This document shows, piece by piece, positions 13,627 through 23,574 of a DNA stretch of 64,000 nt (position 1 is the first letter of the stretch; each line of letters starts with the position of its first letter). The stretch lies in the NCBI GenBank assembly GCA_963695245.1, contig OY968770.1, forward strand, positions 1,766,238 to 1,830,237. Direction: 5' to 3'. Position numbers and translations under genes: made by a program. Source of the stretch: an uncultured Gammaproteobacteria bacterium. Its GTDB lineage: Bacteria > Pseudomonadota > Gammaproteobacteria > JBGSLN01. The notes beneath the pieces were generated by a model. That model saw only the letters and a program-made list of their open reading frames with translations. It was not told the origin of the DNA and did not search any database.

Positions 13627-14130
13627 TCAGATGGCAGTTGCCTTTGACAAATCATAACCTGCAGGAATAGGAGATTGAGGTTTATGATTTTTGTCAAAAG
13701 GGATAACTTTCATTTCAATTTTGTCAAAATTTAGATAAACATGTTCTATAGGAAAGTCGTTATGTTGCTCTGAAATAGATGGTTGTTTTTTACAACAAAT
13801 ATCATGCCCACTGATAATAACATTTGATAAAGTATATTCCAGATAAGCAGTAGGTGTGTTACTTGTGGTCACAAAACTGATTTTGACTTGGGCTTTTGCA
13901 GTACACACAGTAGCCTCGCCAAAAAGACGAGAAGAGGATTTATCGAAGTGTTTAGTGACCACAATCTCACTGATATTCGGCTTAGTACCTTCGCGGTTAG
14001 CTACATGTCCAGGTTGGGTATTCAAATGCCTTTGTACTTTAAAATTAAATGTATCAAGTTCAATCCAGTTTTCATAACCCTGAGTGGTGACATTACCGTC
14101 AATTCCTGAGATTTGCATATAAATTGCCAT
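13627..14130 (-). CDS. hcp: Type VI secretion tube protein Hcp (TssD)
   Basis: N-terminus MAIYMQISGIDG...GYENWIELDTFNF is typical of the Hcp1 family. 167 aa. Divergent from the tssJ operon. Confidence 0.85.
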   Translation of the reverse strand: MAIYMQISGIDGNVTTQGYENWIELDTFNFKVQRHLNTQPGHVANREGTKPNISEIVVTKHFDKSSSRLFGEATVCTAKAQVKISFVTTSNTPTAYLEYTLSNVIISGHDICCKKQPSISEQHNDFPIEHVYLNFDKIEMKVIPFDKNHKPQSPIPAGYDLSKATAI

Positions 14131-14181
14131 GATTTCTCCTGTAAAAAATCATATATTACCTAAATAATATAATAACCTCAA

Positions 14182-14209
14182 TTGACATTATCTTTTTTGT
14201 TGGTAAAAT
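14182..14209 (+). promoter_or_regulatory. Candidate sigma70-type promoter (TTGACA, 16 nt spacer, TAAAAT) upstream of the tssJ operon
   Basis: TTGACA at 14182-14187 and TAAAAT at 14204-14209, in the hcp/ORF144 divergent intergenic region. Confidence 0.3.
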
Positions 14210-14247
14210 ACTGAGAATTCATCATTAGGAAATTAAGGAGTGGTGTC

Positions 14248-14682
14248 ATGTATAATTTATTGATATTGAAGCCCATTGATAAATCTGTCGCACAAGAGCG
14301 GGTACATGCTCTAAGCGCTCTTCAAATGAATCTGTATCAAAATACAGCAATAATAGAAAGTTCTGAGGGTAAACTCCCTTTAAACAATTCTTTATATATT
14401 GAAGTAGGAGGACAGGTGTTTCAATTATGTTTGGAAAAAAATGTTTATCCGGCAGAAGTGACTTTACAGAGTAACTTATCTAATAAGAAAGCTACGCAGT
14501 CAAATAATGCTTGCCCACTAAATCTTCAACAAAAACCAGCAAAAATCTTACCTTTTTTAGCGCAAACACAAGAAACAATTCATCATGCAAATCCTGAGAG
14601 TCATCATTGCGCTGAGATTCATCAATATCTTGATGTGAGTCATGAGCGTATTTTTGAGCATCTGATTATGAGAAAAAGGTGA
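14248..14682 (+). CDS. Hypothetical protein (144 aa) at the head of the T6SS operon
   Basis: Good SD (aaggag) upstream. Sits 7 nt upstream of tssJ. No recognisable motif. Confidence 0.5.
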   Translation: MYNLLILKPIDKSVAQERVHALSALQMNLYQNTAIIESSEGKLPLNNSLYIEVGGQVFQLCLEKNVYPAEVTLQSNLSNKKATQSNNACPLNLQQKPAKILPFLAQTQETIHHANPESHHCAEIHQYLDVSHERIFEHLIMRKR

Positions 14683-14689
14683 AAATATC

Positions 14690-20446: not shown

Positions 20447-20468
20447 ATTATTAAATAAAGGAATTGTA

Positions 20469-21542
20469 ATGCAATCTAATAATAAAAAATTACTTCAACC
20501 CATCGCAAAAAATAACCTAACTGGCATCAATATTCGTCTAAAAGATAGCGGTTTTCAAAATCAATATTATGATTTAAAACTCTTACGAGCACAGGCACGA
20601 AGTCTTGAAAAGCAATCCTATGAATCAGCCTGCTATAACCCCACAGTCTCTGATTGGGAGTCAATATTAAAACAGGTAATAAATTTGCTGCAAAAAACTA
20701 CAAAAGATGTTGAGTTGCTTTGTTGGTATATTGAAGCAAAGCTACGAGTTGAAGGTTTGAATGGGCTAGTAGATGCACTTACTTTGGTAATCGAGTTTGC
20801 TAAAAATGACTGGAATCAAATACACCCAAAGCAAGATGAAGATGGTGAAGATGTAAAATTAGGATTTTTAATGGCTCTAACAGGTGATGATATCCCAGGC
20901 AGCCTTATTTTACCACTAAATAATATAGTGATAACTGATAATGAACACAGTGGTAATTACACGCTATGTCAATATCAGCAGGCAGTGGCCTTAGAAAACG
21001 TAAGTGATCCTGTGCGTAAAGAAAATCGTGCAAAAATATTAGAGTTTGACTTAAATCAAATTAAACAGTCAATATCCAGCACGAACCCCAATTTTTATGA
21101 GAGTTTGTCGGGTCTAGTAAACCAAGCAATTGAAAAAATAATAATAATAGAAAATAAATTAAGTGATTTATATATCGATACAGTATTAAGCTTTGAAAAT
21201 TTGACTTCCGCACTTACCTCAATTTTAGAGCATATTGACTACATTAAAAATGATATTACGACATCATTAATATGTGAAGATACTTATGACAAAGAAGAGA
21301 GTTTTTCGATAAAAAAACCATTAGCTTCAGATGTATGGATAAACAATCGTTTGGATGCCTTAAATCAAATTCAAATGGCTGCAAATTACTTTAAAAAATA
21401 CGAGCCACATTCTCCATTACCGTCAATTTTAGAACGTGCAGTAAAATGGGGGAATATGTCTTTACATGAGTTACTTAATGAAACTATTCAGGAGGAACAT
21501 ACTAAAGAGAATTTAATAAAATTTTTTGGTATTCAATTTTAA
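20469..21542 (+). CDS. tssA: T6SS protein TssA (ImpA N-terminal domain)
   Basis: ImpA_N-like N-terminus (GINIRLKDSG...YYDLKLLRAQA). Start chosen at the Met with an aagga SD; alternative in-frame start at 20439. Confidence 0.75.
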   Translation: MQSNNKKLLQPIAKNNLTGINIRLKDSGFQNQYYDLKLLRAQARSLEKQSYESACYNPTVSDWESILKQVINLLQKTTKDVELLCWYIEAKLRVEGLNGLVDALTLVIEFAKNDWNQIHPKQDEDGEDVKLGFLMALTGDDIPGSLILPLNNIVITDNEHSGNYTLCQYQQAVALENVSDPVRKENRAKILEFDLNQIKQSISSTNPNFYESLSGLVNQAIEKIIIIENKLSDLYIDTVLSFENLTSALTSILEHIDYIKNDITTSLICEDTYDKEESFSIKKPLASDVWINNRLDALNQIQMAANYFKKYEPHSPLPSILERAVKWGNMSLHELLNETIQEEHTKENLIKFFGIQF

Positions 21543-21567
21543 AAAATCATATAAAAAGGAGCATAGA

Positions 21568-22071
21568 ATGAATGATGATAATATTTTCCAGAAGTTGGAA
21601 AGAAATAATAAACCAAGGGTACATATTAAATATGAAGTGGAGACCGAAGACGGAATTCAGGAAAAAGAGTTGCCGTTTGTGATTGGCGTTATGGGAAATT
21701 TTAGTGGTAACAAACCATCATCCTCAAAAAAACCATTAAAAGAAAGGAAGTTTATTACAGTTGATAAAGATAATTTAGATTCTGTTATGGCACAGTTACA
21801 TCCTGAATTAGCATTATCTATTAAAAATGAACTATCAGATGATAATGAAACTTTAAAAGTTACTTTAACTTTTAGTACTATGGAGGATTTTGAACCTGAC
21901 AATATTGTAAGGCAAGTTCCTTTATTAAATGAGCTTTATCAAATTCGAACACACTTAAGTGAACTATTAGCCAAAGCTGATAATTCTGAACATATTGAGC
22001 AATTATTGAACGATATGATGGAGCAACAGCCACAGTTAATTCCTCTTTTAAAACAAATAGAATCTCATTAG
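21568..22071 (+). CDS. tssB: T6SS sheath small subunit TssB (VipA)
   Basis: IKYEVETEDG...LPFVIGVMGNFSG is a canonical TssB motif. Strong aaggag SD before the ATG at 21568; alternative in-frame start at 21526. Confidence 0.9.
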   Translation: MNDDNIFQKLERNNKPRVHIKYEVETEDGIQEKELPFVIGVMGNFSGNKPSSSKKPLKERKFITVDKDNLDSVMAQLHPELALSIKNELSDDNETLKVTLTFSTMEDFEPDNIVRQVPLLNELYQIRTHLSELLAKADNSEHIEQLLNDMMEQQPQLIPLLKQIESH

Positions 22072-22092
22072 ACCGTTAACCAGGAGTAAGTT

Positions 22093-23574
22093 ATGCTTGA
22101 AAAAAATACAGAAGATGCAAGACTAATTAATAATAAACTTTTGAAAACCTATGAAGTTTCTGCGACATCATATCATAACCCACAACATTTTCGTCAATTA
22201 TTAAAATCTTTCATAACAGAAATTTTAGCAGGCAGAATAACAAAAAAACACAATATTTTTTCAACACTTGCAGACGCAATTCAGACCATTGATATGTTAA
22301 TTTCAAAAGAACTAAGCTTAATTATTCAAAATCAATATTTTCAAAAGCTTGAGGGAAGTTGGCGCGGACTTAAGTATCTTGCAGATAAACTTGATACAGA
22401 TAAAAAGCTTAAAATCAAGTTGATGAATGTAAGCAAAAATGAGCTCCAAAAAGATTTTGCTAAGGCAGTAGATTTTGATCAAAGTCAGCTTTTTAAACTT
22501 ATTTATGAGTCAGAATTTGGCATGCCTGGAGGAGAGCCATATGGCATTCTGGTGGGAGATTATGAATTCACCCATTTACCAGAGGATATCCATTTGTTGC
22601 AAAATTTTTCCCAGATTGGTGCAGCAGCCTTTTCACCATTTATCAGTGCTGCCAGTCCAGAAATATTTGGTTTTAAATCTTGGCATAATTTATCAAAGCC
22701 ACGACAGCTTAGAAAAATTTTTTCAACCAATGAATATGCAAAATGGAACAATTTCAGACAAAGTGAAGATGCCAGATTTGTTACTTTAACCTTACCAAAA
22801 GTATTAGCGCGAATGCCTTATGGTGAGCAAGGGATTAAAATTTCTGAATTTAATTTTAATGAAAATGTACAAATACAAACTAGCGAAAACCCTGACGGTA
22901 AAGATACTTTTTGTTGGATGAATGCAGCATATGTTTTTGCTACGAATATTGGACAAGCTCATAAAAAATATGGCTTTGCCACCGCGATTCGGGGGGCAGA
23001 AGGTGGAGGGAAAGTGAGTGATTTACCTATGTTTAACTTGAAAGATCAAACTGGGGAAGCGGTTACTCTGTGTCCTACTCAAATAGCCATTACTGATAGA
23101 AGAGAAGCAGAGCTCAATGCATTAGGCTTTGTGCCTTTGTGCCATTATAAAAATACTAACTATGCTGTGTTTTTTGGCGCTCAAAGTTGCCACAAACCAA
23201 ATATCTATGATACAGCAGATGCAAGCGCAAATGCAGCAATTTCCAGTCGTCTGCCATATTTATTGGCAACCTCGAGATTTACCCATTATCTTAAGGTAAT
23301 GGCAAGAGAAAAAATTGGTTCTTTTTTAGAAATTGAAGATTGCGAACAGTGGTTAAATCAGTGGATTTTAAAATATGTCAATGCCAATGCTAACACACGA
23401 CATGAATTGAAAGCTCTATACCCCTTAGCACAGGCATCTGTGCAAGTACAGGAATTTAAGGGGCAGCCAGGCAGTTACAATGCAATTGTCTGGCTAAGAC
23501 CCTGGCTACAGCTAGAAGAGTTAACAGCATCTATGCGGCTGGTTGCTAAAATTCCAAACTTAAAAAATTCTTAA
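22093..23574 (+). CDS. tssC: T6SS sheath large subunit TssC (VipB)
   Basis: 493 aa. Conserved GGEPYGILVGDYEF and AAFSPF motifs. Confidence 0.9.
   Translation: MLEKNTEDARLINNKLLKTYEVSATSYHNPQHFRQLLKSFITEILAGRITKKHNIFSTLADAIQTIDMLISKELSLIIQNQYFQKLEGSWRGLKYLADKLDTDKKLKIKLMNVSKNELQKDFAKAVDFDQSQLFKLIYESEFGMPGGEPYGILVGDYEFTHLPEDIHLLQNFSQIGAAAFSPFISAASPEIFGFKSWHNLSKPRQLRKIFSTNEYAKWNNFRQSEDARFVTLTLPKVLARMPYGEQGIKISEFNFNENVQIQTSENPDGKDTFCWMNAAYVFATNIGQAHKKYGFATAIRGAEGGGKVSDLPMFNLKDQTGEAVTLCPTQIAITDRREAELNALGFVPLCHYKNTNYAVFFGAQSCHKPNIYDTADASANAAISSRLPYLLATSRFTHYLKVMAREKIGSFLEIEDCEQWLNQWILKYVNANANTRHELKALYPLAQASVQVQEFKGQPGSYNAIVWLRPWLQLEELTASMRLVAKIPNLKNS

Follow-up and report, generated by a model that had tools for sequence, protein, structure and literature searches.

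A split type VI secretion locus with two TssC paralogues, and without ClpV or spike genes within 64 kb, in a Legionellales-like bacterium

Introduction

Can a type VI secretion system (T6SS) work when its locus encodes nearly the whole machine but neither the spike nor ClpV? The question is raised by a locus in a 64,000-nucleotide stretch of DNA, referred to below as the window, which is part of a 2,165,533-bp contig (OY968770.1) of an uncultured gammaproteobacterium. The locus is of T6SS subtype i (T6SS-i) and has genes for the membrane complex, the baseplate, the tube and the sheath, the last with two TssC paralogues, while genes for VgrG, PAAR and ClpV (TssH) are missing; all absences reported in this work concern the window. 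Legionellales, the order to which the host appears to belong, are the textbook case of reliance on a type IVB (Dot/Icm) secretion system, and a second, contractile injection system raises the further question of whether it serves bacterial competition, in biofilms or amoebae, or acts on the host. The reading that we favour, with a probability of roughly 50 to 55%, is that of a horizontally acquired T6SS-i, which we infer to be functional with spike genes encoded at an unlinked site.

Results

The locus and its genes

Profile searches of the open reading frames (ORFs) of the window against Pfam and NCBIfam, with the curated cut-offs applied, place the T6SS locus at about 13.6 to 29.8 kb and find 11 of the 13 T6SS-i core families (TssA to TssM). 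The layout consists of hcp on the minus strand, a divergent plus-strand operon of eight ORFs and a convergent minus-strand operon with tssC2, tssE, tssF, tssG and two ORFs without database relatives (ORFans). We regard the identity and anatomy of the locus as a T6SS-i as practically certain. A preliminary description of this DNA had called it a complete-looking T6SS-i core locus that ended at 23574. The subtype stands; because the spike (VgrG, PAAR) and ClpV are absent the locus is not complete, and because the minus-strand operon at 23873-29822 had been overlooked its end lies near 29.8 kb. The earlier list of genes did not include tssE, tssF and tssG, and a locus lacking these three would not have deserved the label complete-looking. 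Likewise, the eight genes named then (hcp and tssJ-K-L-M-A-B-C) match their families far above chance at their coordinates, and hcp is indeed divergent from the operon, which however counts eight ORFs instead of seven, the first being an ORFan of 144 residues (ORFan144, 14248-14682, plus strand) with no family match.

The plus-strand genes bear out the roles assigned to them earlier. The outer-membrane lipoprotein TssJ (14690-15136) has the lipobox LSSC and scores 100.8 bits with PF12790 and 102 bits with TIGR03352; TssL (16482-17258) is a short, DotU-type protein of 258 residues (PF09850 145 bits, TIGR03349 149.5 bits); and TssM (17255-20446, 1063 residues) has four IcmF Pfam domains and scores 520.6 bits with TIGR03348. 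All three are above the cut-offs of both databases, and the translations of TssL and TssM show hydrophobic segments. The baseplate protein TssK (15149-16480) is also above both cut-offs (PF05936 408.9 bits, TIGR03353 381.7 bits), as TssA (20439-21542) is above that of TIGR03363 (180.8 bits, cut-off 160.85), with 80 bits for PF06812. The small sheath subunit TssB (PF05591 175 bits, TIGR03358 173.5 bits) probably starts at ATG 21568, with AGGAG upstream, and ends at 22071; the longest ORF begins at TTG 21526, and the gene call in L034 has 167 residues. The full-length large sheath subunit TssC1 (22093-23574) matches PF05943 and PF18945 and reaches 620.9 bits with TIGR03355. Among sheath proteins of solved structure, 9n4v_A and 5n8n_B come nearest to it, and it scores 452 bits against TssC1 of Pseudomonas aeruginosa (T6SS-i sheaths give 452-461 bits) but 204 bits against IglB. 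With TssJ, TssL and TssM present and a sheath of the T6SS-i kind, the locus falls outside T6SS-ii, -iii and -iv (Francisella, Bacteroidota and Amoebophilus). The tube protein Hcp (tssD, 13627-14130, minus strand) scores 100.4 bits with PF05638 (cut-off 23.5) and 47.2 bits with TIGR03344, under the cut-off of 58.9, and is 39-46% identical to Hcp of two related loci (L044 and L025).

The minus-strand operon begins with tssC2 (28599-29822), a short second TssC paralogue of 407 residues that scores 212 bits with PF05943, 91.6 bits with PF18945 and 263.4 bits with TIGR03355, slightly under the cut-off of 271.5. Aligned with its counterparts in related loci, it lacks about 60 N-terminal residues, as they do, and has an additional internal deletion of about 25 residues. 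The next gene (28120-28587) is probably a very divergent tssE (gp25-like): its scores are under both cut-offs (PF04965 21.6 bits against 27.2, TIGR03357 35.2 bits against 53.2), and its size and its place between tssC2 and tssF agree with those in all relatives. The two baseplate genes follow. TssF (26346-28127) scores 341 bits with PF05947 and, above the cut-off, 329.5 bits with TIGR03359; the ORF reaches TTG 28133, and the database gene call of 593 residues begins at ATG 28127. TssG (25384-26355) is above the cut-off for PF06996 (98.8 bits) and under that for TIGR03347 (83.5 bits, cut-off 143.3). Directly after tssG comes an ORFan of 243 residues (ORFan243, 24514-25245) with no significant family match, and the operon closes with one of 188 residues (ORFan188, 23873-24439), which has no family match even at E<=10.

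All 12 family-assigned genes and the three ORFans are uninterrupted ORFs despite a guanine-plus-cytosine (GC) content of 31%. Start and stop codons overlap at the tssL/M, tssM/A, tssE/F and tssF/G junctions, and motifs like the Shine-Dalgarno sequence precede hcp, ORFan144, tssJ, tssK, tssL, tssB, tssC1 and tssE; ORFan243 and ORFan188 have none. The best match in the region to a sigma-70 promoter (TTGACA-16-TG-TAAAAT, 14182-14209, plus strand) lies 5' of ORFan144 and thus of the plus-strand operon. It is a match to the consensus alone, in a region where the total of such matches is not above the shuffled expectation, and as a putative promoter it is suggestive only.

Genes missing from the window

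The absence of ClpV, VgrG and PAAR had been noted before, and our searches agree. The Pfam scan took in every ORF of at least 80 residues except dnaX, ybaB, recR, minE and a 134-residue ORF at 55206-55610, and included the ORF left open at the right end of the window; ORFs without a match were run again at E<=10, and intergenic ORFs of at least 50 residues were listed. No match to Phage_GPD, Phage_base_V or PAAR was found in the scanned ORFs, nor at E<=10 in those without a match; none of the listed intergenic ORFs of the window has the size of a PAAR protein, and tblastn searches of the window with the VgrG and PAAR proteins of the related locus L044 were negative. Nor does the window have a Clp-type ORF, its AAA+ matches being DnaX and RarA/MgsA alone, and tblastn with the ClpV proteins of relatives was also negative. 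Genes for tagF, pppA and tagJ/ImpE are likewise missing from the window. The alternatives proposed earlier, independence of ClpV or dependence on unlinked genes, are both reasonable.

A split lineage with two TssC paralogues

Relatives of the locus were gathered via TssC1, TssF and a metagenome scan; a word-prefiltered search for homologues of TssM gave three proteins only. Among 5.8 billion protein clusters, TssC1 has no relative of more than 60% identity (its best non-self match has 60%), so that this is not the same T6SS as that of any sequenced Legionella in that database. One set of reference loci, those of Vibrio harveyi (L015) and of two contigs of metagenome-assembled genomes (MAGs; L035 and L036), is collinear, in the order tssJ-K-L(OmpA)-M-tagF-pppA-tssA-B-C1-C2-tagJ-E-F-G-clpV-hcp-vgrG. 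The TssL proteins of L035 and L036 combine DotU with an OmpA-like peptidoglycan-binding domain in 429-434 residues, a domain that TssL of the window lacks. Since the closest ImpC proteins are encoded in these loci, with both C1 and C2, the presence of two TssC paralogues is a feature of the subtype.

The other order begins with a gene of no recognized family (X) followed by tssJ-K-L(short)-M-A-B-C1, without tagF and pppA, and is found in the Legionellales MAG SAT3 (L017), in L040-L043 and in the metagenome contigs L045-L052. The gene order of the window is identical to this split layout, with X-J-K-L(short)-M-A-B-C1 ending at tssC1 and a separate short-tssC2-E-F-G. The split lineage, with its ImpC/ImpD-like double TssC, also provides the best matches (30-46% identity) for TssJ, TssK, TssL and TssM of the window; identity is at most 45% for TssK, at most 46% for TssL and about 30% for TssM, which has no relative above that value. 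In L017 and L045, tssC1 is the last gene of the first module; in L042 the contig stops 188 bp past tssC1. A short TssC2 of 426-436 residues stands directly upstream of tssE-F-G in L037, L038 and L044, and the best relatives of TssF, with 30% and 29% identity, have this same run of short tssC2 and tssE-F-G. L040 has tssL-M-A-B-C1 facing DUF6931-tssG-tssF, convergent as in the window. Because the first module ends at tssC1 in relatives and L040 has the convergent arrangement, the split after tssC1 is ancestral and predates the genome of the window.

The lineage is less uniform in its accessory genes. In L037 the run tssC2-E-F-G-clpV-DUF6931, with only some 400 bp of contig left 5' of it, gives way to housekeeping genes; in L047 and L049, clpV-DUF6931 immediately precedes X-tssJ; and L044 is compact, with hcp-vgrG-DUF6931-PAAR divergent from tssA-B-C1-C2-E-F-G-X-J-K-L-M. 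In the DNA seen, clpV is thus variably present: it occurs in L037, L047 and L049 and is found neither in L040, where none lies between tssG and DUF6931, nor in L044, which means that loci without ClpV recur in the group. No other copy of the split lineage is as divergent or as reduced as that in the window.

A family of interest in its own right is DUF6931 (PF22011), found in five of these related loci (L037 7637-8212, L040 11889-12461, L044 1793-2407, L047 2833-3396, L049 4850-5410). It adjoins clpV in L037, L047 and L049, follows tssG in L040 and lies between vgrG and PAAR in L044, and looks like an uncharacterised accessory protein of the split T6SS lineage. Pfam and tblastn with the proteins of the relatives gave no match to it in the window.

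A low-GC island with an IS4 element and MITE-like elements

The T6SS tract has a GC content of 30.9%, compared with 37.4% for the rest of the window, and forms an island of about 18 kb bounded by lepB on the left and by a tRNA-Arg(TCG) on the right (31449-31525, minus strand, 3' end toward the island; ARAGORN and Rfam). It adjoins an insertion sequence (IS) of the IS4 family (29866-31387, minus strand; transposase 29952-31133, NF033591 313 bits) with inverted repeats, which lies 44 bp upstream of tssC2. Of the marks of a tRNA-associated genomic island, the drop in GC and the adjacency to the tRNA and the IS4 element are seen; an integrase gene was not found in the window, nor was a second copy of the 3' end of the tRNA as an att site.

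The long imperfect terminal repeats of the IS4 element contain the core of a mini-element resembling a miniature inverted-repeat transposable element (MITE). A complete copy (13433-13591, inverted arms 13466-13502 and 13544-13580) lies between hcp and a 420-residue ORF, and a partial one (23698-23811, from repeat analysis) between the convergent operons, so that the two bracket the module from hcp to tssC1. Further copies of the MITE family or of the IS4 ends are found at 29866-29938, 31281-31387, 36020-36125, 42025-42258 and 53055-53141. The hairpin core, ATGTAGGTTGGGCTGAC-AAAGGAAGCCCAACAGG, has 11 matches across the 64 kb, which indicates a genome-wide element; by their sequence, the MITEs look like deletion derivatives of the IS4 element, or like elements that share its ends. 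The two copies that bracket the module account for the ends of a 10,189-bp contig in a separate assembly of this strain (Logan ERR12040027): its sequence is identical to the window, and it breaks inside each of them.

These repeats give some appeal to the idea that the locus was originally collinear and was broken up recently, when IS or MITE copies mediated an inversion of tssC2-E-F-G and a deletion of clpV and vgrG. The hcp-to-tssC1 module lies between two MITE copies that are directly oriented, 10,267 bp from each other, and inverted relative to the IS4 ends next to tssC2, and the Vibrio-type relatives are indeed collinear, with C1-C2-tagJ-E-F-G-clpV-hcp-vgrG. However, L040 has the same convergent layout and the first module ends at tssC1 in other relatives, and an element dispersed across the window is nothing special at the borders of a module. 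We consider a recent rearrangement quite unlikely, and an inversion of C2-E-F-G by this route, largely contradicted by L040 and by the dispersal of the MITE, was rejected.

The gene on the far side of the complete MITE copy, a 420-residue ORF (12054-13316, minus strand) in the low-GC tract downstream of hcp, where L044 has vgrG, has an F-box-like motif, LPADIKNLIYQNL, and a Ras/Roc-like region. Both Pfam matches are under the curated cut-offs (Ras E=0.0054, F-box E=0.048), and the GC content of 12001-14000 is 0.333. The protein is probably a eukaryote-like effector, and it may be one of either secretion system.

The three ORFans

ORFan144, ORFan243 and ORFan188 match only themselves among 1.84 billion representative proteins; ORFan144 has no Pfam or NCBIfam match, and Pfam finds no nucleotide-binding motif in any of the three, even at E<=10. 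A fast-evolving gene without assigned function lies directly 5' of tssJ in every relative, at 1328-2221 in L017 (297 residues), 799-1881 in L042 (360 residues) and 12875-13426 in L044 (183 residues), the positions that correspond to ORFan144 (144 residues) in the window. The genes of L017 and L042 are detectably homologous (E=6e-9); ORFan144 and the gene of L017 have a 14-residue similarity alone, the motif IEVGGQVFQLCLEK (E=0.29). That ORFan144 and its positional counterparts are degenerate forms of Fha/TagH is unsupported, since Pfam finds no FHA domain at E<=10 and the 14-residue motif is all that they have in common. ORFan243 and ORFan188 were also considered as decayed clpV and DUF6931, and this was rejected because blastp and tblastn show no similarity. 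All three proteins are candidates for an effector, immunity or adaptor role.

Could they instead make the machine self-contained, by replacing spike, adaptor or recycling functions? The three are long and intact, sit within the operons, stand at the positions that clpV and DUF6931 occupy in relatives (ORFan243 where L037 has clpV) and have no homologue among the 1.84 billion representatives, and in Francisella very small or unrecognisable proteins can take roles associated with the spike. Set against this, AlphaFold2 models from single sequences are all-helical and of low confidence (predicted local distance difference test 41.9 for ORFan243 and 49.8 for ORFan188), and they show no likeness to a beta-helical spike, an AAA+ fold or the cone of PAAR; Pfam finds no motif for nucleotide binding, these two ORFans lack Shine-Dalgarno-like motifs, and we know of no T6SS-i that works without a VgrG hub. 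A self-contained minimal machine is, in our view, highly improbable.

Signs of decay and signs of maintenance

Several observations weigh against the favoured reading of a functional T6SS-i with unlinked spike genes, and speak for a relic that was acquired in working order, then lost vgrG/PAAR, clpV and DUF6931, and whose remaining ORFs are still unbroken. In the window, none of these four genes is found: clpV and DUF6931 are gone without trace, and after hcp, where L044 has vgrG, there is a MITE and the unrelated gene with the F-box-like motif, in a genome rich in MITE and IS copies. TssC1 stands on a long branch, with 54-60% identity to 12 relatives that share 64-89% among themselves, and changes 33 of the 212 positions that are invariant in all others, the other sequences changing 0 to 12; this fits relaxed constraint. 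The internal deletion of TssC2, the weak match of TssE and the scores of TssE, TssG, Hcp and TssC2 under the NCBIfam cut-offs point the same way. Finally, the Walker A motif of TssM is degenerate (GDKNTDKN).

The last of these points has a counterpart in a relative. In the alignment of the P-loop, TssM of L017 (4967-8194) is partly degenerate as well (GSKNSGKQ), with the motif intact in the Vibrio-type relatives (GPPGTGKT), and degeneration common to L017 suggests an old change, not recent decay. More generally, some 15 kb of coding sequence with 15 consecutive ORFs has no frameshift or premature stop at 31% GC, where stops arise easily; translationally coupled junctions and ribosome-binding motifs have been kept; and all the proteins are so divergent that they must have evolved as intact reading frames for a long time. 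As to the missing spike, unlinked vgrG islands are common in T6SS biology, and unlinked VgrGs are reported for another member of the Legionellales, Candidatus Centrionella anaeramoebae. The decaying relic is the main rival of the functional reading and a real, if doubtful, possibility.

The host and the flanking genes

The earlier view of a Legionella-like genome fits the flanking gene content, which is of the kind seen in Legionellales with Dot/Icm systems. Pfam finds a DotI/IcmL-like protein, an ankyrin protein, a U-box protein and MinC and MinD; of the features listed before, the U-box and ankyrin proteins and MinCD are supported, while the F-box is the weak match (E=0.048) already described. 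By its gene content the host looks like a Dot/Icm-type Legionellales bacterium. Of seven proteins of housekeeping type, each shares its 90%-identity cluster with at most one other sequence, which marks the organism as a lineage of its own.

Other genes of the window deserve brief mention. Three consecutive genes at 6549-8993 (plus strand) code for a RimK-like ATP-grasp protein that includes an RLAN domain, an acetyltransferase of the GNAT family and the 170-residue DotI/IcmL-like protein. The last is a paralogue of an inner-membrane component of type IVB systems; it stands alone, away from any dot/icm cluster in the window. Three large ORFs match no Pfam family at E<=0.001: 124-2625 (minus strand, 833 residues), 60001-62163 (plus strand, 720 residues) and 31669-33213 (plus strand, 514 residues), the last of which looks like a multi-pass membrane protein; all three may be lineage-specific effectors. 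In an ORF of 137 residues with a GTG start (58596-59009, plus strand) a match to CsrA is confined to residues 35-79, which may reflect extensions on a CsrA paralogue or a mis-called start codon. At the right end of the window, and open there, is a hybrid sensor kinase with PAS, HisKA, HATPase and receiver domains (62174-64000, plus strand).

Discussion

The baseplate of a T6SS-i assembles around a VgrG hub, so that the machine described here would work only with a vgrG gene, and probably a PAAR gene, encoded elsewhere. The two convergent operons, together with hcp, could supply the rest: the TssJLM membrane complex, the TssEFGK baseplate wedge, TssA as cap or priming factor, the Hcp tube and the sheath of TssB and TssC1. 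Given a VgrG spike, probably tipped by PAAR, from an unlinked locus, assembly and contraction would proceed as in any T6SS-i. Contracted sheaths might then be disassembled by an unlinked ClpV or by the housekeeping protein ClpB, as in Francisella, or might not be recycled at all. TssC2 would be an extra component and resembles the second TssC of Agrobacterium, where the two paralogues, TssC41 and TssC40, are non-redundant for Hcp secretion (PMC3702570).

A bolder proposal concerns what such a machine would be for. A Dot/Icm-bearing Legionellales bacterium with a small genome may have kept a streamlined T6SS, without ClpV, TagF/PppA, TagJ and DUF6931, whose spike is unlinked or unrecognisable and whose sheath is reset by ClpB, and may direct it at the host cell as Francisella does, possibly delivering the F-box/small-GTPase-like protein or the ORFans. 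We think this unlikely; if true, an intracellular pathogen would, for a second time and independently, have adapted a T6SS to manipulate its host, here beside a type IVB system. Whatever its target, the copy in the window, as the most reduced and most divergent of its lineage, is a natural test of which parts are dispensable, among them ClpV, TagJ, TagF/PppA, DUF6931 and a linked spike, and it belongs to a split, double-sheath lineage that has been poorly described so far. The practical value of the finding is modest; T6SSs of Legionella, and a partial one without ClpV elsewhere in the order, are on record already.

Among known systems, the imp loci of Agrobacterium tumefaciens and Rhizobium and the collinear loci of similar build from Vibrio, Photobacterium and Pseudoalteromonas (L015, L035 and L036) are like the window in being T6SS-i with TssJLM and two TssC proteins, ordered B-C1-C2, the second followed by tssE-F-G. 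TssC1 of the window is 54-60% identical to ImpC proteins, and the order J-K-L-M, then A-B-C1, is common to both. The window differs in lacking tagF, pppA, tagJ/ImpE, clpV and vgrG and the OmpA-like domain of TssL, accessories that L015, L035 and L036 all have; its TssM lacks a Walker A motif and is shorter by about 110 residues, its TssC2 is shorter by about 100, and C2-E-F-G forms a separate convergent operon. In most members of its own split lineage (L017, L037-L052) the clpV-DUF6931 pair is retained (L037, L047, L049), and L044 has hcp-vgrG-DUF6931-PAAR; the window has neither arrangement, and three ORFans instead.

That T6SSs are rare in bacteria of this kind, as the preliminary description stated, is true and not new. 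Clusters have been reported in L. cherrii, L. dumoffii Tex-KL and L. gormanii (PMC5348487) and in restricted clades of the Legionellaceae (bioRxiv 10.1101/2024.10.21.619444), and the Legionellales symbiont Ca. Centrionella anaeramoebae has a partial T6SS without ClpV and with orphan VgrGs at distant loci (bioRxiv 10.64898/2026.04.11.717937). All of these resemble the host of the window in having a T6SS beside Dot/Icm-type biology, and in the symbiont ClpV is absent too. The symbiont is, however, reported to be without TssA, TssE and TssL, all three of which the window has.

The T6SS-i of Campylobacter jejuni is without ClpV, and neither it nor the T6SS-ii of Francisella encodes a dedicated ClpV in its locus, a likeness to the window; unlike the window, both keep VgrG in the locus. 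Francisella also lives inside eukaryotic cells, as the host of the window is likely to do, but has no canonical TssJ and a sheath of the IglA/IglB type, whereas the window has TssJ. For Francisella, the abstract of a published study cites data suggesting a role of ClpB in T6SS disassembly and describes clpB mutants as defective for type VI secretion (PMC6063899). The copy described here has no close sequenced counterpart and is reduced to an unusual degree, and known systems offer a precedent for each of its single features: the split cluster, the unlinked spike, the lack of ClpV and the two TssC paralogues.

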